Counted from the stretch's first letter, positions 1 to 18,025 are shown. The stretch is 42,285 nucleotides of DNA from Pseudomonadota bacterium (GCA_034439715.1 JAWXAY010000036.1:1-42285), one strand, 5' to 3'. Notes: a model not told the origin generated them from the letters alone. Made by a program: numbers and translations.

Positions 1-690
1 ATAAAACAATACATAGGCTGGATGTATGACAAAAAATATAGCTACTCCCATCTTGTAAATACCTCTCTGGGCCTAGAGCACTACACTCGCTACAAAGGAC
101 AAGTCGTTAAACTGACAAGGCCAAAAAAACCAAGAAGACTTATCAAAGACGTTTTAACTGAGTCCGAAGTTTCACGGTTACTACTAGCCGCCAAAAATAT
201 TCGAACAAAAGCCATGATTTGTTTGCTGTCATATTCAGGTGCTCGAAATAACGAGCTTTGCAATATTAAGGTTCAAGACGTTGATTTAGGCGGGAATCAA
301 TTAACAATTCGGGATGGAAAAAATCGCCAAGACGGAGTCATTAATATTTCTGCTGAATGCACGAGAGTTCTGATTGACTACTTGCGGGATTATCCGAGAG
401 AAAAAGAAGAATTTTTATTTACGACTCTGGTCAGAAAAAAACAGCTGACCACAGGTGATCTTCGAAAAACACTTCGGATTATGGCATTAAAAGCGAATAT
501 TGGGCGCAGGGTATTTCCACACTTGCTTCGGCACAGCTTAGCGACCAACCTTTTGAATCGTGGAGCCAGCCTGATGATGATCCAACAACAACTTCGCCAC
601 CGGTTTATAGAATCGACCATGATCTATGTCTTTTCTAGGCCAGTCCGAAATCGCTCTGAATATGACTTTCACAAACCCGCGTATATGTGA
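1..690 (+). CDS. Tyrosine recombinase/integrase (XerD/IntI-like), probably 5'-truncated by the window edge
   Basis: Catalytic motifs SGARNNEL (R), DGK (K), HLLRHSLAT (HxxR), QLRH (usually LGH) and STMIY (Y). The frame is open from base 1 (IKQYIGW-MYD...). Confidence 0.88.
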   Translation: MKQYIGWMYDKKYSYSHLVNTSLGLEHYTRYKGQVVKLTRPKKPRRLIKDVLTESEVSRLLLAAKNIRTKAMICLLSYSGARNNELCNIKVQDVDLGGNQLTIRDGKNRQDGVINISAECTRVLIDYLRDYPREKEEFLFTTLVRKKQLTTGDLRKTLRIMALKANIGRRVFPHLLRHSLATNLLNRGASLMMIQQQLRHRFIESTMIYVFSRPVRNRSEYDFHKPAYM

Positions 691-832: not shown

Positions 833-2203
833 CTAAACTTTTCCTAGTCCCCATTTATTAAGAAAATAATGTAATCGGTTCTGGGAGATTCCTAGTTTTC
901 GAGAAGCTGCGGCCTTGGTGCCAACGCTTTTCATGACATCCACGACAAGGCCCTTTTTGACCCGCTCGACGTGATCATCAATCTGTTCAAGTGTCACAGG
1001 TACACTTGCTGGAGCCTTATCATACAGGCTCGCATCTAGATCTTCAGGTCCTATAATGTTGCCTTCGCTTTTAATCAAATGTCTTTGAAGAACCGATCGA
1101 AGCTCCCGAACATTGCCCTGCCAATAATGATTTCTAAAAACATCTAAGCAGCTTTTTTTGAACTGCGTTCTGAAATTATTTTCCCTACAAATTTCTTCAG
1201 AAAAATGAGCAACGAGTAGCTCAATATCTTCATGGCGATCACGAAGTGGGGTTGTCGTAATGATAATGCTATTAAGTCTGTAATAAAGGTCTTCTCGGAA
1301 TGTGCCTTCGGCAACCATCTTTTTTAGATCTTTATGTGTTGCGGTGATAATACGCACATCAACAGATGATGCTCGGGTGGCCCCAATTGGGGTAATTTCT
1401 TTTTCCTGAAGAACTCTGAGCAGTTTCACTTGTAAATCTAAACTCAAATCACCAATTTCATCTAAAAAAATAGTTCCGCTGTGAGCTAGCCGAAATTTTC
1501 CGAGCTGATCTGAAACAGCACCCGTAAAAGCACCTTTCTTATGTCCAAAAAGGGAAGAATCAATAAGCGATTGTGACTCGGCGGCAATATTAAAGGCGAG
1601 ATAGGGCCCACTTGCCCTGTGACTTGTTTGATGAATCGCGCGGGCAACTAACTCTTTGCCAGAGCCACTTTCGCCCTGAATTAGTACCGTCGCCTGTGTC
1701 GGACCCACTTTTCTAATTTGTTTTGTTAATTCATAGAGCTTGTCAGACGATCCGATCATTCCCAATTCTTTGATAGAGAGTTCCTTTTCTCCTGCAACTA
1801 GATCAGACTTATCAAGTGTACGGTAAATTTTTTCAAATTTTTCACAATACCCAGCCACAGCGGAGAGTAAAACGTCATTTTCAGAATTCTTGTCCAAAAA
1901 ATCAACAACGCCTGCTATGAAATTTTCACGCATGACCTCTCTAGTATCGTCTAGTGAAAACGCTAAAATTTGTTGGTGGGGCTTCAACTTTTTAATTTCA
2001 CAGACGGCCTCACTTCCAGACATTGATGGCATATGGTAGTCCATCAGGATAAGAGCAAAATCTTTCTTGGCATTCTTGACATTTTTAATTGCCTCCTCGC
2101 CACTCGTCGCCGTCATTACTTGATAGCCTGCGGTACTCAAAAGAAGTTTGTTGAACTTCAAATTTTCAATATCATCATCTACCAAAAGAATTTTATAGCT
2201 CAT
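833..2203 (-). CDS. Sigma-54-dependent response regulator (NtrC family; REC-AAA+-Fis HTH)
   Basis: ILLVDDD...LMDYHMP receiver domain, GESGSGKE Walker A, intact GAFTGA, FLDEIG, FREDLYYRL, WQGNVREL, C-terminal HTH. ATG 2203 overlaps the kinase stop (ATGA). Confidence 0.96.
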   Translation of the reverse strand: MSYKILLVDDDIENLKFNKLLLSTAGYQVMTATSGEEAIKNVKNAKKDFALILMDYHMPSMSGSEAVCEIKKLKPHQQILAFSLDDTREVMRENFIAGVVDFLDKNSENDVLLSAVAGYCEKFEKIYRTLDKSDLVAGEKELSIKELGMIGSSDKLYELTKQIRKVGPTQATVLIQGESGSGKELVARAIHQTSHRASGPYLAFNIAAESQSLIDSSLFGHKKGAFTGAVSDQLGKFRLAHSGTIFLDEIGDLSLDLQVKLLRVLQEKEITPIGATRASSVDVRIITATHKDLKKMVAEGTFREDLYYRLNSIIITTTPLRDRHEDIELLVAHFSEEICRENNFRTQFKKSCLDVFRNHYWQGNVRELRSVLQRHLIKSEGNIIGPEDLDASLYDKAPASVPVTLEQIDDHVERVKKGLVVDVMKSVGTKAAASRKLGISQNRLHYFLNKWGLGKV

Positions 2204-3585
2204 AGAACAACCCCGCATCTTGGAAATAAAATTCGAACAGTAGTTCCTGAATTAATTTTTGAATTAACCGATATTTGACCTTTATATTGTTCACATAGCT
2301 GCTTAACGACAAATAGGCCAAGACCAGTGCCCTTATTAATTTTGGTAGAAAAATCAGCTTCAAAAATTCTGTCTTTTATATTATCAGGAATGCCCGACCC
2401 CTGGTCCACAATTTCCAAAATAATATTTTCATTTGCTACGCCTGAGCTGATCGTAATAATTGAATTTTCGCTTGAAGCATGAATACTATTTGCTACAATA
2501 TTTTCTACGATGCGACCAAGAATAGGCGCTGGCAACTGTGCGATACAGCCATCAGAAGTATTAGTACGGATACTAATTTTTTTATCAATTGCTTCTGGAT
2601 CTGAAGCTATTTCTTTGGCCAAAATCTGAAGTTCTTTAGAGATATCTAGAGCTGAAGTGTCTATAGCTAGAACCTCTCCCGATTGTTTCTTGTAAAGAAT
2701 TTTTAATTGCTCCGCATAGCTAGAAAGACGCTTCAAATTCAAATTACAGTTTTGAAAGAGGTCCCTATCAAAACTTTCTGAATTTGACATTTTTATTTGT
2801 ATTAAACCTAATAACCGTTTCAAGCGCGAAACTGGGTTTAGAATATCATGCCCAATTCCTCTTAGCGTATTAAGTGCGCCCTGCTCTCGCGCTAGCCTTT
2901 CTAGAATGTCAATTTCGCGTCTCAGTCCAGCAAGTGCATTTTCGATGGGCTCCATCTCTGTGAACGGAGCAGAATCGTAAACAGTCGGCGCCTTCGGATT
3001 GTCAGATAGTTTCTTTGCCCAATTCCCAATAGTCTCACTGACGGATCTGACTGCTTTCAAGAGATTAAAATAGAACCCAAAGGCCTGGAATGACATTCCA
3101 AAAATCATTACTAAGGTCACAGAAAAAATAAGTGGCCAATTGGCCTTTGGAGTTCTCTCTATATGTATATATCCCCACTTATTGTTTCGGTCGCCATCGA
3201 AATAAATTGGCATATCAAGGATAATTTTTCCGGCAGAAATATTTCGACAAACACCATTTGGGTTATTGCAAGATTCAATTTTTATTGCGCGCAAGTCGGC
3301 GATCCATGGAGACTTATTTGTATCTAAAAATAAAAGTTGCTCATCTTTTGTTATGCTAAACTCTTTATTTAGCTGAAGTTCAATTGAGCGAATATTTCCG
3401 GAAAGAATATCTGTTCTATAAGAGGTTACGGCTGTTGAGGCCAATGTTTGGATCTCTCGCTCAGCATCTTTGTAAATCATTGCAAAAAACAAGGATGCAC
3501 TTAAAATAAGCGTCAGGAGCATTGCTGCCACAGTCCAACTCAAAGCTAGCTTCTTTACATAAGAAACGAGAGATTTACGTTTCAT
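2200..3585 (-). CDS. Membrane sensor histidine kinase (2 TM, periplasmic domain)
   Basis: Two hydrophobic segments flank ~120 aa. H-box GHDILNP, N-box ENIVANS, G1 DQGSGI, G2 GTGLGL. Confidence 0.95.
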   Translation of the reverse strand: MKRKSLVSYVKKLALSWTVAAMLLTLILSASLFFAMIYKDAEREIQTLASTAVTSYRTDILSGNIRSIELQLNKEFSITKDEQLLFLDTNKSPWIADLRAIKIESCNNPNGVCRNISAGKIILDMPIYFDGDRNNKWGYIHIERTPKANWPLIFSVTLVMIFGMSFQAFGFYFNLLKAVRSVSETIGNWAKKLSDNPKAPTVYDSAPFTEMEPIENALAGLRREIDILERLAREQGALNTLRGIGHDILNPVSRLKRLLGLIQIKMSNSESFDRDLFQNCNLNLKRLSSYAEQLKILYKKQSGEVLAIDTSALDISKELQILAKEIASDPEAIDKKISIRTNTSDGCIAQLPAPILGRIVENIVANSIHASSENSIITISSGVANENIILEIVDQGSGIPDNIKDRIFEADFSTKINKGTGLGLFVVKQLCEQYKGQISVNSKINSGTTVRILFPRCGVVL

Positions 3586-5075
3586 CGTATGCGCACCTTA
3601 GAAAAAAGTACCGTTTCGTCAGAGTTGGGCACCTCAGATAGATCTATTCCTGGCTTTGCTATCGCTAGGCTAGAAAAATGAAATAATGGAAGTACGTACC
3701 CGGCCTCTTGCGCGCGAATTATAATTTTACGCATACTCGAGGCACGTTCTTTAGATGTTGCCAGACTTCTAGTTAACTTCATCTGCTGTGAAAAATCGTT
3801 AGGAGCTGGCCCGGATGGAATAAAAGGAGGATCTCTTTCAATGAAGAAAGACATGGCGCCTTCAAAATTAGGATCGGCAACAGCAACACCACCAGCCAGT
3901 AAATCGTAGTCACCAGACTTGAGCTGATTATTTAGCTCGTTGATTGGAAATAATTTGCAGTCAATTTTGGTTTTTGTGAGTAAGGCTAAAGTTTTTTCTA
4001 AATTACCTTTGAATGCAATTGCGTATTGATTATCAGGAATAACTATTCGAATAGTTCTGTTGTGACTGAAGTTTTCCTGCAATTTAATTATTGGAGGCTC
4101 TGCAGACCATAACTCATAACCTCGAGGAAAGAATTGATCGGCCAGTGCGTATCCAGTGAAATTATCAAGCAAGTTAGATTTATTAATTTTGAGAGAGAGT
4201 TCCTTCAAAAAATTTGCTCCCCCTTGATCTAGAAATTTTTTAGAGGGGTAGAGACTAAAAACTTTGTCAAGACTGCGTTGCCAAGTGGTAAATCCGTTGG
4301 CGGTCATCGCATCCTTTACGACAGCCTTCATAAGAGAAGTGCCAGAAATTAAATTGGACCATTCATCCTTTTTGAAATTTGTTATTACGTCAATATCCTT
4401 TGGTATCCGCCTTATCTCAACTTTGGAGGGCATTTGATCCGAATATTCATACCAGTTCTTATTCGCGGATAGCAGAATGTGGTGGTCATCGTGATTATCT
4501 ACGACGAATGATCCGGCACTTTTTGATAAATCAAGTTTGCCATTGTTGATAAAAACTAGCCCATACATAGGCTCAGTCAGTTTTAGAAGGATGCCACTTT
4601 TTGAAACTTCCTCGACAGTTGTAAAAACCAGAGAGTCATTGCCATCCACATCAATGGAGGCAACAGAATCAAATAAAGCTCGAAGGTCACTTGCATGATC
4701 TTTTTTTGCTCGATCAAGGGCTTCTTTAAAATGAAGGGCACTGATCGGTGAACCATCGGACCACTTTAAATTGGGGCGCAGGGTAAACTTAATTTTATTC
4801 TTATTGATATTTTGCCATTTATTAGCCAAGGCCGAAGTAATTTGTCTTTCTTTGTCAAAAGTAACCAATGGGGACGCGAGTGCCACAGAAAGTTCTAGAT
4901 CAGCCATTGTAATAATTTGAGCTGGGTCTATTGCCTTTGAGAAATTCATATATGTTCTGATGGTATTCACTTTTATCCCCACTGTAGAATTATCCTTTCC
5001 AAATACGCTACTCAGCGGAACCACAGCTAGGGTTACCAACATTAAAAAGAATAACTTTTTTCTCATCCAAAACAT
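3582..5075 (-). CDS. Periplasmic solute-binding protein, family 5 (OppA/DppA-like), with no adjacent permease
   Basis: LA..W...FTLRPNLKWSDGSPI..F motif of SBP_bac_5 and signal peptide MRKKLFFLMLVTLAVVPLSSVFG. Start is likely 5075 or 5066 rather than 5117. The stop overlaps the kinase start. Confidence 0.85.
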   Translation of the reverse strand: MFWMRKKLFFLMLVTLAVVPLSSVFGKDNSTVGIKVNTIRTYMNFSKAIDPAQIITMADLELSVALASPLVTFDKERQITSALANKWQNINKNKIKFTLRPNLKWSDGSPISALHFKEALDRAKKDHASDLRALFDSVASIDVDGNDSLVFTTVEEVSKSGILLKLTEPMYGLVFINNGKLDLSKSAGSFVVDNHDDHHILLSANKNWYEYSDQMPSKVEIRRIPKDIDVITNFKKDEWSNLISGTSLMKAVVKDAMTANGFTTWQRSLDKVFSLYPSKKFLDQGGANFLKELSLKINKSNLLDNFTGYALADQFFPRGYELWSAEPPIIKLQENFSHNRTIRIVIPDNQYAIAFKGNLEKTLALLTKTKIDCKLFPINELNNQLKSGDYDLLAGGVAVADPNFEGAMSFFIERDPPFIPSGPAPNDFSQQMKLTRSLATSKERASSMRKIIIRAQEAGYVLPLFHFSSLAIAKPGIDLSEVPNSDETVLFSKVRIR

Positions 5076-5298
5076 AAACGTTCCCTTCTTTATCCACAGC
5101 GATAATCTTAGCTTCACGAGCGAATTCAGGATTTTTTTCTAAAAACCGAATGACATGATCATGAACAACGACTCTTTGTTCAATTGGTAGGTTTTCAATT
5201 AGGGTTAAATCTTCTTTTTCATAGGCAGCCGCAAAATTTGGCAGAACGCTGAAGCCCGCGATAGAAAATAAAAAGTTTTTTATGAATTTTTTGTGCAT
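5008..5298 (-). CDS. Secreted small protein, putative YcaO-modified RiPP precursor (C-terminal NVGNPSCGSAE)
   Basis: Strong RBS (TAAGGAG) directly after the ycaO stop, Sec-type signal peptide ending AAA|Y, and a Ser/Cys/Gly tail. The precursor role is inferred from context. Confidence 0.75.
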   Translation of the reverse strand: MHKKFIKNFLFSIAGFSVLPNFAAAYEKEDLTLIENLPIEQRVVVHDHVIRFLEKNPEFAREAKIIAVDKEGNVYVLDEKKVILFNVGNPSCGSAE

Positions 5299-5307
5299 TT
5301 TTTCTCC

Positions 5308-6297
5308 TTAACCCACAAAATGTGGATTTTTATTTGTTAATGGTTCTCTTGAACTGGTTTTTCCCCAAAACAATTTTTTAAAATTTAAACTACGTAACCG
5401 AACAACGTAGTAGTCACAAATTTTGAACGTTAAAATTTCAAATTCATTTAAGCTTGTACCTAAAACAATTTTTTGATGCTGACTCCAACTGGTTTCAATA
5501 AAAATAGGTGTCGCTTGTTTCAAAACAACTTCGCTTGGCATAGGAACACTGTAAGCGTAGGCCAGAGAGTGCGCTCCTGGGGGTACGGATAGACTGGTAA
5601 TATTTGTATTATGTAGGTTCGAAACTTCAGAAAAATGTTCGAATCTTAATGCAGCGTGCGCAGATCTAAAACACTCTGCTGTTGCTGAAAGAATTGAATT
5701 TTTTAAACTTAACCCTGAGGCGTGGCCCGTAACAAAGTTGCCGCGCTCATTAAATAGCAATGATGAAATCGCGCATCCATTTTCAGTGGCACACAGATAT
5801 ATCTTTAGGTCCGGATACTCCAATGAATGTGGTTTAGAATCTGCCCATTTTAATATTTCTGATGGCCATAGTGATTTTGGAATTTCATAAAATGGTCCAC
5901 TGTTTTCCCAAGTTGTAAGTGCGACATCTCTCTCAATCAACTCGCAGAGAGCATTTTCAAGGGCACTATTTAGCTCTAAGTGGCAGGCCCACCCATTTGT
6001 TGTGTCTGGTTTGCCGCTCTTTTTAAAATATTTTCTAAAGACCAGTCGCTCTAATGCTTCAGATGTTGCTTTAAGAGTTACTGTTTCTGGTCTGGAATCA
6101 CTAAAGCCCGTCTCTTCAATTGAAGCAATAGACACAAAAACAGAACCAGAAATAAAACCCGGAATAAAATAGCCGTCGGGTCTTTTGATAGGCTTTAGCT
6201 TTGAGACACGGGGCGCCTGTAGTGTTTCTACGGATAGAGGCATTCCTTTAGCACAAACAATTTTATCAAATAATAATGAATGGTTAGATTGCCCCAT
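5308..6297 (-). CDS. YcaO-family protein (ATP-dependent peptide backbone cyclodehydratase-like), compact and stand-alone
   Basis: KATSEALER and TTNGWAC...ALCELIERD match the YcaO ATP/Mg-binding motifs; the C-terminal NPHFVG resembles the YcaO PHP tail. ATG 6297 has a G-rich RBS; the longer TTG 6342 start falls inside the sigma-54 promoter. Confidence 0.85.
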   Translation of the reverse strand: MGQSNHSLLFDKIVCAKGMPLSVETLQAPRVSKLKPIKRPDGYFIPGFISGSVFVSIASIEETGFSDSRPETVTLKATSEALERLVFRKYFKKSGKPDTTNGWACHLELNSALENALCELIERDVALTTWENSGPFYEIPKSLWPSEILKWADSKPHSLEYPDLKIYLCATENGCAISSLLFNERGNFVTGHASGLSLKNSILSATAECFRSAHAALRFEHFSEVSNLHNTNITSLSVPPGAHSLAYAYSVPMPSEVVLKQATPIFIETSWSQHQKIVLGTSLNEFEILTFKICDYYVVRLRSLNFKKLFWGKTSSREPLTNKNPHFVG

Positions 6298-6325
6298 TAG
6301 CCTGCCCCCCGTGGCTAAATATCTA

Positions 6326-6342
6326 AGCAATGTACGTGCCAA
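6326..6342 (-). promoter_or_regulatory. Sigma-54 (-24/-12) promoter of the ycaO-peptide-SBP-HK-RR operon
   Basis: The minus strand reads TTGGCACGTACATTGCT, an exact match to TGGCACG-N4-TTGCW, about 30 nt upstream of the ycaO ATG. Confidence 0.9.
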
Positions 6343-6443
6343 CCAAATTCAGAGGTTTTTTAAATCAATTCGCGATGTGGCGGCAATGAACAGGGGTTAT
6401 TTGTGTTTAGGGCAGAAATCGAACCACGTCTTGTAAAAATTAC

Positions 6444-6661
6444 TTCAAAAAATTTGAAACCCAATAAAGGGCACCATGCATCGCTTTATTCTCAACCTTT
6501 TGTTTTTGATAGAATTTTACCAAACTCGGAGCACTTCATATTTTTTGAAACTAATTTGTAAAAAAGATCGTTCAAAAAATTTGAAGTCATACAGATTTTT
6601 TGAAGCCAGTTAACTGGCTGAAAATACTTATCTTCATTTTTTTTAATTCAAATATTTTGAA
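6444..6661. promoter_or_regulatory. Cluster of TTCA-N7-TGAA dyads, candidate enhancer (UAS) sites for the NtrC-type regulator
   Basis: Perfect copies at 6444-6458, 6535-6549, 6571-6585 and 6647-6661, and a one-mismatch copy at 6590-6604. The 6444 and 6571 copies are identical (TTCAAAAAATTTGAA) and both are preceded by TTGTAAAAA. Confidence 0.6.
6604..6619. repeat. Perfect 16-bp palindrome AGCCAGTTAACTGGCT
   Basis: Read directly; it lies in the middle of the divergent intergenic region. Confidence 0.8.
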
Positions 6662-6808
6662 ACTTTTCTGAGTTATTAAAAATGAAACTTTCTATTATTT
6701 CAAAATACTTTCAAACAGTTATCTGATTTTTAGCCTCTTGTTGGCATGCCTTGCAATTCTAAAGGGTGAAGGACCACAAAAAAAGTGCTCACACAACAAG
6801 GAGATAAA

Positions 6809-7165
6809 ATGAATTTAAGAAATTGTCCAAGATGCAATGAACGAACTTACGAGACACTAAGAACCCACTCACATTGTTTGTGCTGCAACTATAGCCCCGA
6901 TTTACTTGGGTATCGAAAGTCATCTGCTGATGATCTGCCAATTCCTCCATGGGCAGCAAAAGCTGCCGAACGAAAACAAACCCAACGGGTAAATCCATCT
7001 GTCGTTATTGTTGATACTATGGACTCAATAGATCCAAAGACTCATCGGAAATGGTTTAAAGATTTAGTCAAAACATTTGCAACTTCTAACGACATGAGCA
7101 TGGAAACATTTGAACGTATTGAATCGAAGAAATTTATTAGATCAAGACGCAGTGACTACTATTAA
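6809..7165 (+). CDS. Small zinc-ribbon-like protein, first gene of the transfer operon
   Basis: CPRC...HCLCC motif; RBS AAGGAG before ATG 6809. Confidence 0.7.
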   Translation: MNLRNCPRCNERTYETLRTHSHCLCCNYSPDLLGYRKSSADDLPIPPWAAKAAERKQTQRVNPSVVIVDTMDSIDPKTHRKWFKDLVKTFATSNDMSMETFERIESKKFIRSRRSDYY

Positions 7166-7174
7166 GGAGGGTAT

Positions 7175-7447
7175 TTGAAATCAACTCATCTGTTTATAAA
7201 AGAAAAAATAAAGATATTTTCTGAAAACAATTTTGAGGAATTGCACGAGTCACTATTGAAATTGTCTTCAAAAAAACAACAAGTAGTTCAAATGCGATTT
7301 TTTGACGAACTCACAATTGATCAAATCTCTCAATCTTTGGGGATTGCTTGGGATGAAACAGATAAATTGATTAAAACTGCTCTGAGTGATCTTCGAGCTA
7401 TACTCGAAGAAAAATTAAATCAAATGTCGATGATTCAAGCGGCTTAA
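7175..7447 (+). CDS. Sigma-70 region 4-like HTH protein (stand-alone)
   Basis: LSSKKQQVVQMRFFDELTIDQISQSLG...ALSDLR pattern; RBS AAGGAGG. Confidence 0.8.
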   Translation: MKSTHLFIKEKIKIFSENNFEELHESLLKLSSKKQQVVQMRFFDELTIDQISQSLGIAWDETDKLIKTALSDLRAILEEKLNQMSMIQAA

Positions 7448-7478
7448 ATTTTGAATCATAAACTAAGGGGAAATTAGT

Positions 7479-7913
7479 ATGGATACACAAATTAAAAGTA
7501 TTACACAAAAAAATGATCAGTATTTCAGATTTCAAGTTTTGCAAGGTGATATTAAGTTGGAAGGAGGATTTAAGAAAACAAAAAGTGTTGGAATGGCCTA
7601 TCTTAAGAACGGTCAGAATACCTACACGCTCAGGCTTTGGACATTTGTAAATGAGAAATTTTATCTCATTCCAAATAAAAATGATGCTTTAAAATATTTA
7701 GTGATGACAAGAGAGCCTAATAAAAGTCCGACTGCTAAGAATAAATATTTCTGGAACATTGTTGGCAATGGCGTTGCAGATTCAGCGCTTGGGGTTATTA
7801 AACTTGATTTCGACCTTTTGAGTAAGGTAATTTATGTAAATATTCATCCTGAATTATCGGCATTTTCCGTGAAATTGCCTGAGCCTGATTTCGGTGAGAC
7901 GGCTGCCGCTTAG
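7479..7913 (+). CDS. Hypothetical protein with an internally duplicated VGxA/G beta motif (loosely DUF736-like)
   Basis: KSVGMAYLK..YTLRL and WNIVGNGVA..IKLDF repeats; RBS AAGGGG. Confidence 0.6.
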   Translation: MDTQIKSITQKNDQYFRFQVLQGDIKLEGGFKKTKSVGMAYLKNGQNTYTLRLWTFVNEKFYLIPNKNDALKYLVMTREPNKSPTAKNKYFWNIVGNGVADSALGVIKLDFDLLSKVIYVNIHPELSAFSVKLPEPDFGETAAA

Positions 7914-7981
7914 GCTTGTTCGCTTACAATATGAAAATATGCGCGTTCATTTGAGTTTCTCCACATTTTTCTGGAGTACAA

Positions 7982-8269
7982 ATGACAAGTAAACATACAT
8001 TTTTAGTTTTAGGATTGTTTTTAATGATTGGTCTTTGGATGCCTGAGCTTGCTCAGGCAGGGCTTGAATCAAGCCTTGTGGGCCTTAAGACAAAATTAAC
8101 TGGAGTAATTTTACCTGTTTTATCAGTGATAGGAATTGCCATTGCCGCAGTTTCTTTTTTCACCGGAAACCCACAAGCCAAACAACATATTTTATATGCG
8201 GTGCTTGGATGTATCTTTGGGTTTGGAGCCCAAGCCATTGTGGACTTTATCGCCCAAACTGTGCGGTAA
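7982..8269 (+). CDS. virB2: Conjugative pilin, VirB2/TrbC family
   Basis: Signal peptide ending AQA, two hydrophobic helices, IFGFGAQAIVDF end; first gene of the T4SS block. Confidence 0.8.
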   Translation: MTSKHTFLVLGLFLMIGLWMPELAQAGLESSLVGLKTKLTGVILPVLSVIGIAIAAVSFFTGNPQAKQHILYAVLGCIFGFGAQAIVDFIAQTVR

Positions 8270-8272
8270 AGT

Positions 8273-8593
8273 ATGCAAGAACAAGAACTGCTTGTTTCTA
8301 GCGTGCCTCGCGCGCTCGAGATGAAAAGTAAAATATTTGGTTTTGAAACCCCCGACCTCTTGATCATTTTTTTGAATATGACTTTGATGAATCTTGTCTT
8401 CGGTACAACGAGTTTTAGGTATCCGCTCGTCTGGGGCACAACTTTGTCGCTGGCGCTTTTCTTGTTTTTCGCAAAACGCGGAAAGCCTGATAACTACCTT
8501 CAACATCTTGGCGAATACATTTCGCAAGATGCTCATAAGGTCGCTGGTGGCAGAGATTTAAAGTACCGAAAATTTATGAAAGGACAGATATGA
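8273..8593 (+). CDS. virB3: VirB3/TraL-like inner membrane protein
   Basis: ~106 aa, two TM segments, KPDNYLQH motif; lies between pilin and VirB4 and overlaps the virB4 start. Confidence 0.7.
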   Translation: MQEQELLVSSVPRALEMKSKIFGFETPDLLIIFLNMTLMNLVFGTTSFRYPLVWGTTLSLALFLFFAKRGKPDNYLQHLGEYISQDAHKVAGGRDLKYRKFMKGQI

Positions 8594-11100
8594 ATAATTA
8601 CAAAGAAAAGGAGGCTTCTCTTTCTGAGGAGCTTCCTTATTGGGATTTTTTTAGCGAACCTAAGCCGCATGCTGTGTTAATTGATGGCTCTGTAGTGGCA
8701 GGGCTTGAAATGACCCTTGCCGATATTGAGTGTTTTGATGAGCGTGAAACAAATCAATTCACCGCAGGACTCAGGTCAGCGCTCAATTCAATTTCTGAAA
8801 ATACGACTGTGCAATTTGTTTTATCTGTCAGGTCTGACTATTCAGATGCAATTGAAAAACATGTTTCTGGAAAAAATCAGGAGGCGCACAGTCTTGTAAA
8901 AAAAATTGCAGCCTTTCGCGAACACAAATTACAAGCTTTGCAAGATTCGGGCGAACTATACCGCCCAAATCTTCGTGTTTATGTACGCGTAAAGCCCGTC
9001 CCATCTAAAAAAGTAAGTATCTTTAAAAAAAGGGAGGTTTTTTCTCAAGTCACAAAAGACGCTTACTATGAAACGCTTGAAAATTTAAATCAAAACCTTG
9101 AAAATTTTATTTCATCATTTGGTACCCTTGGTATTCAGAGTAGGCAGCTCACAAAAGATGAAATGCTTACACACATTTATCGGTTTTTAAATCCGAAGAG
9201 ATCTAAAACTGAACCAACACCGTCCGTGAAAACTTCATCTGAACCTGACTTGAGTGAAGAGTTGCTTAACGAAGCAGGTTGGCTAGCAAACTCTTCGCCG
9301 CGTGAACAGCTTTTATTTGGCGATCTCGTCTTAGGTTTCGACCAATTTACGCTCGATCAGTATCACCATAGACTTGTGACACTGAAAACTCTTCCTGAAA
9401 TGACTTATGCTGGCCAGTTTGCTGGTTTTTTACGTATGTCGTTTCACTATGATTTGATTCTATCGTTTGAAGTGCCAAATCAAAGTAATGAAATGGCAAA
9501 ACTTCAGCAAAAAAGAAAAATGGCGCATTCACTAGCCGTAACTCAGGCCGGTCGCGCAAGTGATTTAGAAAGTGAAAGCAAACTTTCAAGTATTGAAGAA
9601 TTAATTCGTGATCTGCTAAATACAGGTCAGCGGATTTATGCAGTGCAGATGACTGTTGTTCTAAAGGCCGAAGCCACTCCTGACGGCAATAAAAAGCTAA
9701 ACCGTGAAGTTCGGGAAGTCCTATCAAGATTCAGAGCACTACAAGGTGCGGAAGGACTTGAGGAGTCTGTTGGATCTTGGAAAGTGTTAAAAGGTAATCT
9801 TCCGGCGGCACCAATAAATCTTGAACGGGCCAGGAAGATGAAAACCAATAATCTGGCAGATTTTTTACCAGTGTATGGGCCACAAGAGGGAGATAAAGAT
9901 CCTGTTGTTATTTTCAGAAATCGTTTGAATGGTTTAGTCGGATTTAACAGCTTCGATCCAAATCTTCCGAATTTCAACTCGCTGGTGACCGGGTCATCTG
10001 GATCTGGAAAAAGTTTCTTGAACAATTGCATTTTGATGCAGGAGCTTGCCAGGGATCTTCGGGTATTCATTATAGACATCGGTGGATCATACAAAAAAAT
10101 CACTGAATGTCTGGGCGGTCAATACTTAGAGATCAATCTTTCAGACCAATACCGAATTAATCCTTTTGATTTAGCCAACCCATTTGAGGAGCCAAGTAAT
10201 CAAAAGCTCAAATCGTTACTAGCAATTGTTGAAACGATGGTCGCTGAGGATGAAAAAACAAAATTGCCAAAGCTTGATCGTGCGCTTTTAGAAAAAGCAA
10301 TTATTGAGCTTTATAAATCGCGAAGAGCGAAGGGCGAAGTTCCAGTTATGACAGATCTTGCAAAATATCTATCAGTTTTTGAGGAAGACAATATGCGGGC
10401 CATTTCAAAGATGCTTTACCTTTGGACTGGCGAGCGTCCCTACGGACGACTGCTTGATGGTCACGGAAGTCTAAGAACAGACGCGCCGATTTGCACTTTT
10501 GATTTGAAAGGACTATCGAGTTATCCAGACCTTCAAAGCGTGATGGTTTTAATTCTGACTGATTTTATTCTGTCGCAGGTTGAAAATGATCGAACCAGAA
10601 AAAAACGAATCATCTTGGACGAAGCTTGGGAGCTTTTAAAATCTTCGGCGTCAGCAAACTTCATGGAGTATTGCGCAAGAACACTTCGAAAAACTGGAAG
10701 TGGAATTACGTTCATCACCCAAGGAGTCGAAGAAATTGTGGCAAGCGCCATAGGTCCGGCGATTTTGAATAACACAGCCACAAAATTTGTGATGCTTCAG
10801 CGTGGTGACACTGAGATTTTAAAAAATACTTTAAAACTCAATTCTCAAGAAATTGCGCTAATTCATTCACTTGAACAACGAAAAGGTGTATTTTCAGAGG
10901 GGTTCATGATTGAGGGCGACCAAAGACAGGTTGTTCGGATTTATCCAAGTCCCTTTGAATACTGGCTTTCAACAAGCGACGCTCAAGACAATAATTATTT
11001 GGATCAATTAAAAAAACAAAATCTGACTTTGGTCGAAGCAATCGAGAAAGCTGCAATCGAATTTCCTCAAGGAATTGCCGTTGGCAGAAAGGCGGCTTGA
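8590..11100 (+). CDS. virB4: VirB4/TraC-family T4SS ATPase
   Basis: 836 aa; Walker A GSSGSGKS, IIDIGGSY, INPFD, Walker B LDEAW, RK..G..FITQ. Confidence 0.95.
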   Translation: MNNYKEKEASLSEELPYWDFFSEPKPHAVLIDGSVVAGLEMTLADIECFDERETNQFTAGLRSALNSISENTTVQFVLSVRSDYSDAIEKHVSGKNQEAHSLVKKIAAFREHKLQALQDSGELYRPNLRVYVRVKPVPSKKVSIFKKREVFSQVTKDAYYETLENLNQNLENFISSFGTLGIQSRQLTKDEMLTHIYRFLNPKRSKTEPTPSVKTSSEPDLSEELLNEAGWLANSSPREQLLFGDLVLGFDQFTLDQYHHRLVTLKTLPEMTYAGQFAGFLRMSFHYDLILSFEVPNQSNEMAKLQQKRKMAHSLAVTQAGRASDLESESKLSSIEELIRDLLNTGQRIYAVQMTVVLKAEATPDGNKKLNREVREVLSRFRALQGAEGLEESVGSWKVLKGNLPAAPINLERARKMKTNNLADFLPVYGPQEGDKDPVVIFRNRLNGLVGFNSFDPNLPNFNSLVTGSSGSGKSFLNNCILMQELARDLRVFIIDIGGSYKKITECLGGQYLEINLSDQYRINPFDLANPFEEPSNQKLKSLLAIVETMVAEDEKTKLPKLDRALLEKAIIELYKSRRAKGEVPVMTDLAKYLSVFEEDNMRAISKMLYLWTGERPYGRLLDGHGSLRTDAPICTFDLKGLSSYPDLQSVMVLILTDFILSQVENDRTRKKRIILDEAWELLKSSASANFMEYCARTLRKTGSGITFITQGVEEIVASAIGPAILNNTATKFVMLQRGDTEILKNTLKLNSQEIALIHSLEQRKGVFSEGFMIEGDQRQVVRIYPSPFEYWLSTSDAQDNNYLDQLKKQNLTLVEAIEKAAIEFPQGIAVGRKAA

Positions 11101-11810
11101 TGAAAAGAATTAAAACGCTGATCGTCGCAGGTGTGATGAGTGTGGTCTTTGCATTTCCAAACAAAGCAAAGGCCGATCTTTTTGGCGCTGATGTTGCTGT
11201 GCTGGTGCAAATTTTAGCACAAGCTATTGCGCAACTTGTACAGCTTAAACAAATTTTGAGCACAGGCGGCGACACATTGGATCTTATGCGTGATATTAAC
11301 CGAGGCATTAGGGATGGACTCACCGTTCTTCTGATGATTAATCCGAAGTTTAATCCAGGTCTTTATGGCAACTTAGACACAGCAGACCGAGTGCTCGACA
11401 CCATACAATCTATTTACGGAAAAATTCCCCAAACTGCCGAGGCAAGGCTTCAGGCGGCACAGGATCAGTCAGTTTCTGAAAGTATCGCGATGAACGGAAC
11501 TTTGTTCAAATTCGCTGATGAAGCCGACGACGAAAGTAAAAGAATTTTTAGTCATTCGCAATCAGTGAGTCCACAAGGGGCTGCAAAACTAACAGCCCAA
11601 AGTGTGGCTGTTTTGATTGGCGTTACCACACAAGTGCTCAGAACAAATTCGATGATGCTTAAAATGATGGGCGAAAATATGGCCCTAGCAAATCGAAAAG
11701 AAAAATTGAAATCCGCACAATTTAAAACTGAATACGACGGTCTTTCTTCGGCTTTAGGAAACTTGCCAAGGGAAACCAACATTAAGCCGCTTAATAGTGG
11801 AGGTAACTGA
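11097..11810 (+). CDS. VirB5/TrbJ-like secreted T4SS component
   Basis: Signal peptide ending AKA|D, Gln-rich helical N-terminus, position between virB4 and the virB6-like gene. Confidence 0.6.
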   Translation: MMKRIKTLIVAGVMSVVFAFPNKAKADLFGADVAVLVQILAQAIAQLVQLKQILSTGGDTLDLMRDINRGIRDGLTVLLMINPKFNPGLYGNLDTADRVLDTIQSIYGKIPQTAEARLQAAQDQSVSESIAMNGTLFKFADEADDESKRIFSHSQSVSPQGAAKLTAQSVAVLIGVTTQVLRTNSMMLKMMGENMALANRKEKLKSAQFKTEYDGLSSALGNLPRETNIKPLNSGGN

Positions 11811-12673
11811 TGCCTGATTGGAATGTGCTTGGCTCATTGATGACTGAGCTTCACCAAGAGTTCGTAAGAATTTACTATTTAATGCTCCCAGTTTTTTTTG
11901 CGCTATCGGTTGCGGTCACTTGGTTTAGGCATCCACAAGGCAGTATTGAATTTATTGACGTATTAAAACGAGCTGTGATTTCAACTTTGCTGCTGGTTGC
12001 ATTTCCAGAGATCACAAAAGCAATTGTTTTTGTTGCTGATGGAATAGTTGAAAGAATTGATGCGATTAATAGTCTCGATAACTTTATGAGAATGGCGCAA
12101 GAAAAATCACAAAGTTACTCGTTTACGCCAACAAGTATTCTTCTTCAGTTTGATGATCTGATTATAGCAGCGCTGGCTTTCTTGAGTTACTTGGTTTTAT
12201 ACATTGCAAGATTTCTGACAATAGCAATGTATCATTTTTACTGGATATTCTACACAGTCATTGCTCCCCTGCTTTTGCTGTTTAATATGTTTTCGTCCAC
12301 CAGTCAGATTACGAAGAATTTATTCAAAGGGATGATCGAAGTCGCTTCATGGAAAATTGTGTGGGCAGTACTTGGAGCAATGCTAACCGCATTATCATTT
12401 AGTAAGATTTATCAAATTGAAGGAAATTACATCACACTCATAGCAATGAATTTCATTATTACTATTGCCATGCTGATGACACCAAAAATTGTAAGCGCAA
12501 TTGTGGGTCATGGATTTCATGCAGAGGCTACAAGTCTAGGCGCTGTAGCAACAGCCGCAGCAGTCGCTGCACCGGCAAGGGCTATGATGGTTAAAGCTCT
12601 GGGCTCTGAAGTTGTGAGAAATACATCATCATTTTCAAAAAGTGCAATTAACAAATTTAAAGGAAACAAATGA
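11810..12673 (+). CDS. VirB6/TrbL-like polytopic membrane protein
   Basis: Five to six hydrophobic segments, IAPLLL, Ala-rich tail; canonical position. Confidence 0.7.
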   Translation: MPDWNVLGSLMTELHQEFVRIYYLMLPVFFALSVAVTWFRHPQGSIEFIDVLKRAVISTLLLVAFPEITKAIVFVADGIVERIDAINSLDNFMRMAQEKSQSYSFTPTSILLQFDDLIIAALAFLSYLVLYIARFLTIAMYHFYWIFYTVIAPLLLLFNMFSSTSQITKNLFKGMIEVASWKIVWAVLGAMLTALSFSKIYQIEGNYITLIAMNFIITIAMLMTPKIVSAIVGHGFHAEATSLGAVATAAAVAAPARAMMVKALGSEVVRNTSSFSKSAINKFKGNK

Positions 12674-13257
12674 ATACAATAATAAAATTGGAGACGGCAA
12701 AACTGCCGAAAGCTCTTTCTGACCTACTTCACTCGAATCAATTTCTGAAACTTTTTTCTCTTTGCGCTGTTGGAGTGTCTGGGCTATCACTGATTTTAAA
12801 CCTTGTAATAATAAATAAGGCTCCGCTGGTTCTAACTTTAGCTGTTGATGCGAGGCAAATCGAACAGCGGGAGATGCCAAAACCTGATGATGAAATAAAA
12901 ACTGCAATCAAAAGATATATTGAGCTTCGCTATAAATGGGAGCCAACGTCAGTTAAGGAAAGATTAAAGCTTGCGGAGGCTTTTATTGCGCCACAAAGCC
13001 TTACCGCCTACCTGTCGGCAACAGCCAATGTTGCAAAATTTTCGGTTGACCGCCAAGTCATGCAGCGAGTTTATCCAGATAAAATTGAGGTTAATTTAGA
13101 AAAGAAAACTGTCTCTATTTTCGGCGACCGTGTGACCGCTATTCAAGGACTAAAAGCTGCGGGAGATTTGAAACTGGAGCTAAGTTTTGATAGCGGGCCG
13201 AGAACTAGACTTAATCCTTGGGGTATTTATGTTGTTAAAGAGCGCGAAGAGCAATAA
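12670..13257 (+). CDS. VirB8/TrbF-like protein
   Basis: Single N-terminal TM and C-terminal RTRLNPWGIYV, matching the VirB8 NPxGxxV motif. Confidence 0.75.
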   Translation: MNTIIKLETAKLPKALSDLLHSNQFLKLFSLCAVGVSGLSLILNLVIINKAPLVLTLAVDARQIEQREMPKPDDEIKTAIKRYIELRYKWEPTSVKERLKLAEAFIAPQSLTAYLSATANVAKFSVDRQVMQRVYPDKIEVNLEKKTVSIFGDRVTAIQGLKAAGDLKLELSFDSGPRTRLNPWGIYVVKEREEQ

Positions 13258-13312
13258 AGAGATTGCCATAAAAAGATTTGAGTTAAATTCACATATATAT
13301 TTTGGAGATTCA

Positions 13313-14026
13313 ATGAATTTATTTCTCTGGATTTTGTTGGTTGCATTTCCCGTTGCATCGTTCGCATCTCAACGTGTTCGGCACGTTGTTGTTCAAAAAG
13401 ATCAAATTATTACTGTCAGAACGGCAATTGGAATTGCGACCATTATTCAAGTGCCTGACCGACCAAATAGTGTCGTTGTCGGCGATCAAAATGCGTTTAA
13501 AGTTGAGTACCTTGACCAAGCCATCACAATCAAACCTTTACACGGAGGAGCAAAAAGCAATCTTTACGTCTATACCGATTGGCGAAGATACAATGTGCAG
13601 CTCATAACTGGATCAGAACCAAGTGCTGACTACGTTGTTTATCTCGATGGTCAAAAAGAAAAGCCAAAAGAAATTAAATCCACAGTCCACTGGATGAATA
13701 TTTCAAAAGAAATAAATGATGGCTCTCTAACCCTTAAGCTAAAGCGAATAAGTAAATCAAAAGATTTGTTGACGGCTGATTTTGAGTTCCAATCATCAGC
13801 GCGAGATAAAATTGATCCATCGTGGATTTGGATTACTCAGTCTGGAAAAACAAAACCGATCCATAATCTGATATTTTCAAGTTTTGAGGTGAAAGCCACG
13901 CAAAACGTAAAAGTCTTGATGCAAATTTTAAGATCCGATCTTGATGAATCAATCTCTTTTAAAATCGAATTGAGGCGAAAGAAAACCACTTATTTAACCT
14001 TACCTAAGGTGAGTTCATGGAAGTAA
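13313..14026 (+). CDS. VirB9/TrbG-like core complex protein
   Basis: Signal peptide from ATG 13313 (RBS GGAG); ATIIQ...VVGD...ITIKP...SNLYVYTD.RRY pattern. Confidence 0.75.
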   Translation: MNLFLWILLVAFPVASFASQRVRHVVVQKDQIITVRTAIGIATIIQVPDRPNSVVVGDQNAFKVEYLDQAITIKPLHGGAKSNLYVYTDWRRYNVQLITGSEPSADYVVYLDGQKEKPKEIKSTVHWMNISKEINDGSLTLKLKRISKSKDLLTADFEFQSSARDKIDPSWIWITQSGKTKPIHNLIFSSFEVKATQNVKVLMQILRSDLDESISFKIELRRKKTTYLTLPKVSSWK

Positions 14027-14982
14027 CAAAAAATCAAAATTGGTTTTCGCGGATCTTTTTTAAAGAGGCCAAGCCATTCATTGCAAAGCAAGACATTAAC
14101 TGGAGGCGTATATCTCATGCTGGCGTTGTCTCAGTGGTAGTTCTTGTGGTCGTTTTGTTGCTGCTGCCTGAGTCAAAGCTACTAACAGCAGATTTTCATG
14201 AGAAGGCTGATATTGGTTCGGTCGGAGCTTCAAAATCTATTGAGGGAGATCCGACAAATGATGCTTTGGCACAACTTGAGCAAAGCCAAATGAATGCGAG
14301 ATCAGTGCCTAGTTCTAAAGATTATTTGGGCCAGTCATCTGGTAGTGGTGCCTCCTCCAGCGGACCAGATCGTAGCAGTTCGATGATAATTGCCAGAAGT
14401 GGTGTCGATGGAAAAACGCAACTTCCAGCAGGAACAAGACTGTCTATCAAACTTGCGCATAAAATTATTGTTTCAAACCAAGCGATGCCAATCATTGGAA
14501 TTGTTACAAAAGAGGTTGTTCACGAAGATTCGGTCGCTATTCCGCAAGAGGCTAAAATTTTTGGCGAAGCTTCATTTGATGATAGTTCTGATCGAGCGCA
14601 AGTTTCTTGGAAGTCAGTGCAATTTCCTGATGGCAGAGAACGTCAACTGTCTGCCGTGGGTATTTCAGCAGATGGACAAGGCGGTGTTGAAGGTAAAACT
14701 CATTCTGAGGCTCTTAAAAATACAGTTGGATTAACGCTGACAAAATTTATTGGTGCCTATGCAGAGGGCTCAATACAAAGGGGTCCTTTTGGCGCAAATG
14801 CCGGTGGCGACGGCAATGGAATGAGGAATGCCGTAGCGGAAACTGCAAAAGATCGCGCAGATAGCTGGGCACATGACCTTCAAAAAGAGAAAAAATGGAT
14901 TGTGTTAGAAGCGGGCAATGAATCATTGGCGGTGCTCTCGACCGCTTTTGTATTTAGAGATCCGGGCGCCTATGGAAGATAA
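14017..14982 (+). CDS. VirB10/TrbI-like core complex protein
   Basis: N-terminal TM, low-complexity linker, LPAGT...AIPQEAKIFG...RAQVSW...DGQGGVEG domain. Confidence 0.85.
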   Translation: MEVTKNQNWFSRIFFKEAKPFIAKQDINWRRISHAGVVSVVVLVVVLLLLPESKLLTADFHEKADIGSVGASKSIEGDPTNDALAQLEQSQMNARSVPSSKDYLGQSSGSGASSSGPDRSSSMIIARSGVDGKTQLPAGTRLSIKLAHKIIVSNQAMPIIGIVTKEVVHEDSVAIPQEAKIFGEASFDDSSDRAQVSWKSVQFPDGRERQLSAVGISADGQGGVEGKTHSEALKNTVGLTLTKFIGAYAEGSIQRGPFGANAGGDGNGMRNAVAETAKDRADSWAHDLQKEKKWIVLEAGNESLAVLSTAFVFRDPGAYGR

Positions 14983-17021: not shown

Positions 17022-17035
17022 CCGGCCTTTTATGA

Positions 17036-17785: not shown

Positions 17786-17792
17786 CTTAAAT

Positions 17793-17842
17793 ATCACAGT
17801 GGCATCACTCCGGCATCACTGCAAAGCAGAGTGATGTTTTTT
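17793..17842 (+). repeat. ATCAC repeats at 11-bp period plus an inverted copy and T-run (oriT binding sites and/or terminator)
   Basis: ATCAC at 17793, 17804 and 17815; GGCATCACT twice; CATCACT/AGTGATG inverted pair followed by TTTTTT. Confidence 0.55.
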
Positions 17843-17891
17843 AAAAAACAGAATTTTTGAAATTTAAAACCTGAGAATAAAATCAAATACA

Positions 17892-18008: not shown

Positions 18009-18025
18009 ATAAAAGGAGTTAGAAT

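Follow-up and report, generated by a model that had tools for sequence, protein, structure and literature searches.

The window analysed here, the whole stretch of 42,285 bases from contig C36 of assembly GCA_034439715.1, carries a candidate peptide-signalling cassette beside a divergent set of type IV secretion system (T4SS) genes. The genome is labelled Pseudomonadota bacterium and is 95.7% complete; the host of the element is a Bdellovibrio-like bacterium. On the minus strand, between 6342 and 833, lie five open reading frames (ORFs) in the order YcaO-family enzyme, 96-amino-acid (aa) ORF, substrate-binding protein (SBP), histidine kinase (HK) and response regulator (RR). These genes and the regulatory sites upstream of them are as follows.

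6444-6458, 6535-6549, 6571-6585 and 6647-6661: four 15-bp dyads, TTCAAA-N3-TTTGAA, candidate RR enhancer sites.
6327..6341, minus strand: sigma-54 (-24/-12) promoter, TGGCAC-N5-TTGC, TGGCACGTACATTGC, the only match without a mismatch in 42,285 bases.
5308..6297, minus strand: short stand-alone YcaO-family enzyme, 329 aa (PF02624, AlphaFold2 (AF2) and Foldseek, invariant motifs).
5008..5298, minus strand: 96-aa putative precursor, with a predicted Sec-type signal at about residues 1-26, a helix-plus-sheet region at 30-88 and a flexible tail, G-N-P-S-C-G-S-A-E.
3582..5075, minus strand: orphan periplasmic family-5 SBP, 497 aa, with a signal peptide (PF00496).
2200..3585, minus strand: membrane HK (HATPase_c, E 4.3e-21), with an ATGA overlap with the SBP stop codon.
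833..2218, minus strand: NtrC-type RR with REC, sigma-54 AAA+ and C-terminal helix-turn-helix (HTH) domains (Pfam); likely start 2203.

The original prediction for this DNA described one tightly coupled five-gene operon, and all five genes are found where it placed them, on the minus strand. One boundary moves: the YcaO gene had been started at TTG 6342, which falls within the sigma-54 promoter, so that the gene starts instead at ATG 6297, a codon that is preceded by a G-rich ribosome site and occupies the same start column in most relatives. The spacing from the YcaO stop to the precursor ATG is 9 nt. The SBP gene starts at ATG 5075, within the 3' end of the precursor gene (overlap 68 nt), and in most relatives too the precursor ORF ends past the first aligned SBP residue. 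The SBP stop and HK start overlap as ATGA at 3585-3582, and the HK stop shares an ATGA with ATG 2203, where the regulator probably starts. A further claim, that the operon comes with no ABC permease, dehydrogenase, E1/RRE partner or TfuA, agrees with our Pfam scan, in which the window's scanned ORFs yielded none of these families; TfuA (PF07812) was likewise not found in the whole genome. The partner families of thiazole/oxazole-modified microcins (E1-like/RRE, FMN dehydrogenase) are thus absent from the scanned ORFs, and the operon consists of its five genes.

The same unit was found in 28 further loci, which fall into two sequence tiers. Seen again in 13 close loci, in 15 more distant ones and in a second copy within the same genome (contig C14, locus L016), the five-gene arrangement is real and lies far beyond chance. 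The 13 close loci come from species-representative genomes, 12 labelled as Bdellovibrionota lineages and one a metagenome-assembled genome labelled Pseudomonadota. By tblastn, the full order of YcaO, small ORF, SBP, HK and RR is present in ten of them, and two run off the end of their contig, one in the HK and one in the SBP. VirB4, VirB3-like and TrbC genes lie divergently upstream in all nine close loci (9/9) that have an intact YcaO gene and several kilobases of upstream sequence, across VirB4 identities to the window that range from 94% down to 32%. Synteny of ycaO, precursor, SBP, HK and RR beside virB4, chosen beforehand as a test that could refute the original prediction, is kept in these nine loci and recurs in the distant tier. 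Two close loci are decayed: L010 (JBBKWD010000234.1) keeps YcaO, lacks an SBP and a sigma-54 motif and has a precursor truncated to 46 aa, and L014 (JAPKGD010000062.1) has a YcaO without its first ~118 residues and no promoter, with its downstream genes intact.

Sixteen second-tier loci were fetched. The SBP gene adjoins YcaO in 15 of them, the other (L062) holding a partial YcaO only. The HK and RR follow in 13 of these 15; the fetched sequence of L050 ends within the HK, and neither gene was found in L053. Eight of the 15 have T4SS genes inside the 10-19 kb that were fetched, and in two others VirB4 lies on the contig of the cassette at a distance of 10-13 kb. L051 and L055 have their T4SS genes directly downstream of the RR, on its strand, so that read-through is possible there. 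Of 401 sampled Bdellovibrionota genomes, 53 yield YcaO matches at E<=1e-10, which fall into three tiers, and 123 have the VirB4 family of the window. A YcaO of the first or second tier occurs in 21 sampled genomes, 18 of which also have this VirB4 family; among the 380 others the family is present in 105. These counts are descriptive only, because related genomes are not independent. In the third tier (L063-L066), whose proteins are named by position and tblastn alone, three of four loci keep the order signal-peptide ORF, SBP-sized gene, YcaO-like gene and HK. The YcaO-like genes there are ~320 aa (L063, L064 and L066, from genomes G246, G372 and G223, respectively), with no regulator seen beside them. 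The small ORFs of this tier (64 and 112 aa) have no terminal [S/T]-C pair, and one has an internal I-C-T; L065 (G238) has the same gene order with an upstream ORF that has no signal segment.

The enzyme is a distant but recognizable member of the YcaO family. The PF02624 match (35.5 bits against a cut-off of 25.7) extends over just residues 110-231 of the gene read as 344 aa. Confidence in the AF2 model is high (pLDDT 91.5, pTM 0.90), and the matches that Foldseek lists at E<=0.001 belong without exception to YcaO enzymes (McbD, M. kandleri, MJ1094, E. coli YcaO, LynD and TruD, with TM ~0.5), McbD being the top match (E 1.4e-8). No variation occurs at K76, E80, E83 and R84, or at E119, E122, R123 and D124, among 27 sequences that are 35-47% identical, and these acidic stretches correspond in the alignment to E-A-x-E-R and E-x-x-E-R-D of MJ1094, motifs that we take to bind ATP and Mg as in E. 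coli YcaO. The extreme C-terminus is also invariant, P-H-x-V-G, and distant tiers end P-H-x-V-[PSA] or similarly. A large protein collection holds 68 relatives of 262-385 aa, and all 69 proteins carry PF02624; among 1.84 billion representatives, a profile search detected 79 YcaO matches at E<=1e-30 and 223 at E<=1e-10.

The 96-aa ORF has no family match. Purifying selection is evident in 35 of the 36 pairs drawn from nine close loci (pN/pS 0.08-0.30; the remaining pair has one differing site), and the sequence comparisons indicate that this small ORF is a real coding gene. A word-based protein search returned just two relatives; because an overlapping ORF may escape gene callers, we read the peptides from DNA. 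Every version begins with basic and then hydrophobic residues and has small residues at the end of this segment, a pattern from which we predict, by eye, a Sec-type signal peptide. The AF2 model contains a helix at residues 39-55 and three strands (pLDDT 83-89), followed by a tail of low confidence. Foldseek found no match for it in the PDB at E<=0.001, and the Atlas gave no usable feature match and only structural neighbours at TM<0.5, which include a PepSY-like cluster.

Conservation in the precursor reaches deepest at its C-terminus. P90, S91 and [S/C]92 are constant in 12 close loci and are followed by 1-8 variable residues; the P-S-[C/S] tail is kept in 13/13 close sequences, and the precursor on contig C14, only 28% identical to that of the window, retains N-P-S-C. 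Second-tier ORFs, often just 48-60 aa, share with the window's precursor only the hydrophobic N-terminus and the near-terminal pair, which is [S/T]-C in 11/15 and [S/T]-S in 2/15 and is often preceded by a Gly-rich run. In these alignments a near-terminal Ser/Thr-Cys, sometimes Ser-Ser, appears as the sole deeply conserved feature of the precursor. Azoline-forming YcaO enzymes act on substrates in which Cys and Ser alternate beside a hydroxyl residue. Many second-tier precursors (L050-L061) also share a motif, G/S-S/T-[RK]-x-L-[LMV], between the hydrophobic segment and an A-x-A-like site. It is a candidate recognition element for the second-tier YcaO, to judge from its position, and it lengthens unusually the region ahead of the predicted cleavage site.

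We co-folded YcaO with the full precursor in the presence of ATP and Mg, in three runs and with three controls. The interface scored an ipSAE of 0.79 (runs 0.80, 0.77 and 0.79) against 0.00 for the best control, with at least 91% of contacts in common between runs and a partner pLDDT of at least 65. The corresponding mark is reached by 116/157 solved complexes and 2/215 mismatches, counts that are rough in this case, where our own alignments and ligands were used. Precursor residues 34-66 pack on YcaO residues 40-42, 156-160, 214-226 and 249-250, and the contacts bring together E160, H214 and Y249, which are invariant in YcaO, with R42 and V49, which are invariant in the precursor, and the near-invariant H46. 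The model supports binding of the conserved precursor helix by YcaO. The ORF thereby combines the attributes of a precursor of ribosomally synthesized and post-translationally modified peptides (RiPPs), namely a small coding gene adjoining the enzyme, a core that is conserved and modifiable, and a region for recognition that the co-fold places on the enzyme. The proposal that the precursor tail is modified fits the deeply conserved C-terminal [S/T]-C pair, whereas the co-fold places no confident contact on the tail (residues 88-96); we therefore place the putative modification site from conservation alone.

The three remaining genes encode a putative sensory relay. The SBP matches SBP_bac_5 (PF00496) with E 6.8e-16 and 58.8 bits against a cut-off of 32.4, and its six PDB sequence matches are all to the peptide binders MppA and OppA (E 5e-7 to 3e-4); its best NCBIfam match, of the nickel-binding NikA type, is far under the cut-off. 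No permease or ATPase genes adjoin the SBP in the operon or its relatives. The HK gene comes next instead, and in relatives the SBP and HK tblastn matches abut. The best NCBIfam models of the HK are of the AtoS and ZraS types, all under their cut-offs, and by eye its topology includes a ~110-aa periplasmic loop with a hydrophobic segment on each side. The RR matches Sigma54_activat (E 3.3e-68) and Response_reg (E 2.8e-20), together with lid domains, and a GAFTGA motif is visible in its translation. It scores 309-342 bits against the AtoC, ZraR and NtrC models, all under the equivalog cut-offs, and matches the LuxO model at E 1.3e-80, under its cut-off. By analogy with LuxP/LuxQ and CBP/ChiS, the SBP may present the peptide to the kinase loop.

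The promoter and the dyads are largely conserved along with the cassette. The consensus sigma-54 promoter anticipated by the original prediction is indeed a single perfect match in the window, and the motif is conserved: of the 27 loci with usable upstream sequence, 26 have TGG[CT]-N8-TGC at 25-100 nt before the start of YcaO, namely 12/12 close loci (the window and C14 included) and 14/15 second-tier loci, against a background of 0.058 per 410 nt. The genome encodes rpoN, and no sigma-70-like site was predicted on the operon strand in 6298-6790. With up to one mismatch, all four dyad matches in the window fall in the intergenic region (0.91 expected; 0/100 shuffles reach four). The dyad is found upstream of YcaO in 9/9 close loci with upstream sequence, in clusters of three to five in eight of them and singly in L005. 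It is present in L006-L015, in which VirB4 is just 32-33% identical, and it is replaced by five CACAGA-N3-TCTGTG dyads in the C14 element, in which VirB4 is 70% identical. The dyads therefore travel with the cassette and its RR, not with the T4SS genes. L005 keeps its dyad without a detectable homologue of sig4 or orf126, two small genes of the divergent set, which favours the RR as the dyad binder. We infer from these patterns that the dyads are probably RR enhancer sites.

Self-activation by the RR, as originally predicted, fits the conserved sigma-54 promoter and the cassette-specific dyads, with RR binding to the dyads as its conjectural step. Direct sigma-54 activation of the transfer genes, also predicted, is unsupported because no conserved -24/-12 motif faces the T4SS genes in any of 11 related loci; we dropped this idea, the window's own site at 7763-7777 (one mismatch) being unique. 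In the window as a whole, sigma-54-like motifs with up to two mismatches number 52 against a shuffle mean of 33 (0/100 shuffles reach 52), and further one-mismatch sites lie at, for example, 11183, 21118, 30058 and 40134.

The cassette is part of a compact element whose other recognizable features are these:

1..690, plus strand: tyrosine recombinase, cut by the contig start and convergent with the RR (Phage_integrase, E 1.2e-32).
6785..16576, plus strand: divergent T4SS gene set (Pfam and NCBIfam matches), its order conserved beside the signalling unit.
First gene of the divergent set, plus strand: orf126, Cys-rich, 126 aa.
7175-7447, plus strand: sigma-70 region-4 protein (sig4), 90 aa.
Between the sigma-70 region-4 gene and TrbC/VirB2, plus strand: orf144, 144 aa.
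7982-8269, plus strand: TrbC/VirB2.
8273-8593, plus strand: VirB3-like, a VirB3-sized ORF.
8590-11100, plus strand: VirB4.
13187-14026, plus strand: VirB9.
14017-14982, plus strand: VirB10.
14918-16576, plus strand: TraD/VirD4-type coupling protein.
18786..19880, plus strand: second tyrosine recombinase, the probable far end of the element (Phage_integrase, E 6.6e-26).

An integrase, a T4SS and a coupling protein, as in an integrative conjugative element, are all found, and the element looks like a compact integrative T4SS element. The original prediction called the operon divergent from a conjugation operon: the T4SS genes are indeed divergent, whereas no relaxase family was recognised in the window, which offers just a weak MobC-like match at 17036-17785. 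Because the assignment draws on VirB2/4/9/10, the coupling protein and the integrases, with no relaxase recognised, we regard the element as putatively conjugative. As the contig start cuts the left integrase gene, the element may extend further, and its DNA-processing genes may lie off the contig. Between the coupling protein and the right-hand integrase (16569-18773) lie four ORFs without a clear family, with weak matches to a YiaD-like lipoprotein and to MobC. Just beyond that integrase is a toxin-antitoxin-like pair (21364-22020; HI1420-type antidote, Gp49-like). Two DUF4423 proteins (25695-26498 and 30885-31718) lie on the same strand 5 kb apart, with DUF6635 and fn3-domain proteins between them, and an RND efflux system occupies 34637-39449, beyond the element. 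Rfam gave no RNA matches in 1-21000, and no tRNA gene is present. The stretch is present in six DNA runs, all microbial mat metagenomes, four of which may be the source of this DNA; no RNA run was listed as containing it.

Comparison with two close relatives, L003 and L004, and with the C14 element shows that the proteins of the cassette and of the T4SS diverge to very different extents. Protein identities to the window are, for L003/L004 and then for C14:

VirB4: 89-94%; 70%.
TrbC: 88-96%; 69%.
RR domains: 70-77%; 39-51%, with the HTH not alignable.
HK: 65-70%; 26-30%.
SBP: 57%; 34%.
Mature precursor: 49-60%; 28%.
YcaO: 45-47%; 31%.

At the DNA level, the YcaO gene of the window cannot be aligned with those of L003/L004, and its flanks are 63-83% identical. 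Cassette type and T4SS type are also mixed between elements. L047 has 77% DNA identity to the window from 6738 through the T4SS genes, yet carries a C14-type cassette, and L006-L015 combine a window-type cassette, its RR domains 47-73% identical, with a T4SS of 32-33% identity. Because the two types mix across L047, L006-L015 and C14, the five genes and ~440 bp upstream behave as an exchangeable cassette. Divergence that is fastest at the enzyme, the peptide and the SBP resembles the specificity groups of peptide pheromones, or could reflect recombination history alone. The genome (G000) holds at least three related T4SS elements, on C36, C14 and C7 (L072), the other two with VirB4 proteins 70% and 74% identical to that of the window. 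The recombinase genes at the starts of C36 and C14 share 96.5% protein identity and 92% DNA identity over 691 nt; as both contigs begin with a nearly identical gene, the assembly probably broke at this repeat.

The sensory genes also occur without the enzyme. Ten VirB4-family neighbourhoods without YcaO were fetched, of which four were scanned with Pfam, and seven show an HK, a sigma-54 RR or both near the T4SS by tblastn. L072, on contig C7 of the same genome, has an SBP5-HK pair and then an RR (the RR by tblastn), and L079 has two GNATs beside SBP5-HK-RR. In the cassette's place, L080:5408-9995 (G177:C9) carries a radical SAM enzyme, a type-I periplasmic binding protein, an HK, a sigma-54 RR and a GNAT, in that order. 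Judging by its gene content, this may be a parallel signal-making cassette built around another enzyme; no small precursor ORF was found beside it. L076 runs RR, 94-aa secreted ORF, SBP5, 179-aa ORF and HK. In these neighbourhoods, an SBP-HK-sigma-54 cassette is the usual neighbour of the T4SS genes, which supports a regulatory role, and the YcaO-peptide pair is one of several add-ons.

On this evidence we propose that the element carries a self-contained circuit in which a YcaO-modified, Sec-exported peptide is read by a matched SBP, HK and sigma-54 RR, a reading that we judge to have an even chance of being right. The sigma-54 promoter and the dyad array would drive the five translationally coupled genes. 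Since sigma-54 promoters need an activator, the operon's own NtrC-type RR is the likely driver, making the cassette autoregulatory. YcaO would hold the precursor by helix 39-55 and activate with ATP a backbone amide at Ser91-Cys92 of the tail. The likeliest product would be a thiazoline or oxazoline, and with no dehydrogenase the ring would stay an azoline. The Sec machinery would export the precursor and signal peptidase release it, yielding a product of ~70 aa here and of ~15-30 aa in the distant tier. The OppA/MppA-like SBP would then bind the modified tail, dock on the periplasmic loop of the kinase and shift its kinase/phosphatase balance, and the phosphorylation state of the RR would act back on the operon. 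Output to the adjacent T4SS genes could pass through the shared intergenic dyads, or by read-through where the T4SS lies directly downstream. The response could be either autoinduction or shut-off by like elements, as in ICEBs1, and the signal could be either shared between cells or kept in the producer's periplasm.

A link to the T4SS is favoured by the adjacency of its genes to the cassette in nine close and eight distant loci. Several observations weigh against the proposed circuit. The enzyme is far from characterised YcaOs: its sole PDB sequence match is MJ1094 (E 0.0016), its TM-scores to characterised YcaOs are ~0.5, it reaches 45.1 bits against the SagD-type cyclodehydratase model TIGR03604, whose cut-off of 219.25 is not reached, and its C-terminus reads P-H-x-V-G, which may depart from the proline-rich motif in which active cyclodehydratases end. 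Besides the missing tail contact in the co-fold, 2/15 distant precursors end without a Cys or Ser pair. A mature product of ~70 aa would be too large for the outer membrane or an OppA-type pocket without cleavage, and the cassette encodes no protease. No conserved sigma-54 motif faces the T4SS genes in the 11 related loci, where the window's site at 7763 has no counterpart, and across the genome the dyad shows no enrichment (8 matches; control pattern, 7), so that no wider regulon is visible. Related elements also run SBP-HK-RR cassettes without YcaO, and such sensors can therefore work with other ligands, which keeps alive an explanation based on an outside ligand.

A more specific form of the proposed circuit is possible, and we hold it tentatively. 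T4SS elements of Bdellovibrionota may carry orthogonal 'pherotypes', each with its own YcaO-cyclised, Sec-exported peptide and matched SBP, HK, RR and operators, so that elements in one cell would time T4SS expression independently.

The strongest competing explanation, which we consider unlikely, is that SBP, HK and RR sense a foreign periplasmic ligand, such as prey or recipient peptides, murein fragments or a metal complex, and that the YcaO peptide is an output effector (a metal binder, an antimicrobial or a surface factor) and not the ligand of the kinase. The SBP-HK-sigma-54-RR cassettes that lack YcaO (L072 and L079), that have a radical SAM enzyme (L080) or that have GNATs (L079 and L080) speak for it, as do the best SBP relatives in the PDB, which include the murein-peptide binder MppA, and the NikA type of the best, sub-threshold, NCBIfam match. 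An effector role would also suit the Gly-rich Ser-Cys tails, which resemble precursors of antibiotic azole peptides, and the top fold match to McbD. Bufferins, the Sec-exported RiPPs known so far, bind metal (PMC12452194). Yet the precursor gene overlaps the SBP gene and is always its neighbour, and YcaO, precursor and SBP diverge together, faster than the HK, the RR and the T4SS genes. In the third tier, moreover, a precursor-like ORF, SBP, YcaO and HK stay together despite a changed order, and Pfam scans of the window recognised no genes for the export or uptake of an antibiotic or metallophore, or for immunity.

We regard as distinctly unlikely a private loop in which the modified small protein stays in the producer's periplasm as a co-factor of, or brake on, the SBP-HK pair, giving a bistable switch and not density sensing. 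Porins would not pass a mature product of ~70 aa that is predicted to contain a folded core, the cassette has no outer-membrane exporter or protease, and an operon that holds an RR together with its apparent promoter and operators is wired as a feedback switch. The predicted mature peptides of the distant tier, at ~15-30 aa, are of diffusible size, however, and the strong divergence of cassettes and dyads between two elements of one genome, which avoids cross-talk under either reading, is most typical of shared signals. Very improbable, finally, is that the YcaO-like protein is inactive or has another substrate and that the small secreted protein is an unrelated accessory of the sensor in the periplasm: the enzyme's great distance from characterised YcaOs, the co-fold's silence on the tail and the E. 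coli YcaO, which has no adjacent precursor, would fit, but acidic motifs invariant in 27 sequences at 35-47% identity, strict gene adjacency in both tiers, a near-terminal [S/T]-C kept where the rest of the peptide is not, and a co-fold that passes while its controls score 0.00 all argue against it.

If the proposed circuit holds, it is probably a new variation on autoinducing-peptide circuits. In the CC-licensed PubMed Central (PMC) and bioRxiv literature, with subscription journals largely outside the scope of the search, we found no description of a YcaO enzyme in a signalling cassette or of this Bdellovibrionota cassette. In Vibrio LuxP/LuxQ-LuxO, as is proposed here, a signal made by the bacterium itself reaches a membrane kinase through a periplasmic binding protein, and the kinase controls a sigma-54 activator. 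There, however, AI-2 and not a peptide is the ligand, the binding protein belongs to a different class, LuxQ acts via LuxU as a hybrid kinase, and the signal synthase lies outside the operon of a chromosomal, not mobile, system. Staphylococcal agrBDCA is likewise a single autoregulated operon with a precursor, a maturation enzyme, a kinase and a regulator, and its hypervariable enzyme-peptide-sensor centre sets specificity groups, a pattern comparable with the identity gradient from YcaO to RR. It differs in belonging to one-membrane bacteria, in the thiolactone ring made by a membrane protease, and in having no binding protein, sigma-54 or Sec signal peptide. Vibrio CBP-ChiS offers a family-5 binding protein without a transport role that controls a membrane kinase; its ligand, unlike that proposed here, is an environmental chitin oligosaccharide and not a product of the same operon.

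Mobile elements that encode their own signal and a sensor timing transfer are known in ICEBs1 (RapI-PhrI), the enterococcal pheromone plasmids and Ti (TraI/TraR), and the ICEBs1 peptide is also Sec-exported. These systems differ in using either unmodified peptides, sensed intracellularly after Opp import, or acyl-homoserine lactones, and we know of none among them with a YcaO, an SBP-dependent kinase or sigma-54. The microcin B17 synthetase McbBCD, through McbD, and the cyclodehydratases LynD and TruD share the YcaO fold, and as in their substrates the precursor features Ser/Thr-Cys pairs, which in many cassette relatives lie within Gly-rich tails. Unlike McbBCD and other azoline-forming YcaOs, the cassette has no E1-like/RRE partner or dehydrogenase, its enzyme is just 329 aa and does not reach TIGR03604, its precursor has a Sec-type segment, and its context is a sensor and not immunity or export genes.

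In PMC12452194, Sec signal peptides on RiPP precursors are called highly unusual, and Sec export of RiPPs in a native host is described as experimentally shown only for bufferins. As presented there, bufferins resemble the cassette's proposed product in having a RiPP precursor with a Sec signal peptide in place of a classical leader and in being modified at Cys; they differ in relying on an MNIO and a DUF2063 partner, not on a YcaO alone, and in being copper chelators unpaired with a binding protein, kinase and regulator. If the proposed circuit is correct, Sec-exported RiPPs would gain a second enzyme family after the MNIOs that modify bufferins.

YcaO chemistry has so far been linked to antibiotics, toxins and the modification of enzymes or ribosomes, and enzyme-made peptide pheromones are textbook material in one-membrane bacteria and nearly unknown in two-membrane ones. 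The proposed circuit, if true, would give YcaO chemistry a role in signalling, and a common T4SS family would decide on gene transfer via swappable sensor cassettes. Were the pherotype reading also true, the peptide would be the first signalling molecule made by a YcaO enzyme, and the system a rare case of RiPP-based peptide quorum sensing in two-membrane bacteria; elements could each count or recognise their own kind; two of at least three T4SS elements in this genome carry such cassettes. Parallel cassettes with other enzymes, such as the radical SAM of L080, hint at a wider toolbox. At ~5.5 kb, self-contained and naturally diversified, the cassette is a tractable source of orthogonal peptide-sensor pairs, and the joint divergence of signal, enzyme, receptor and operator can be studied in it.

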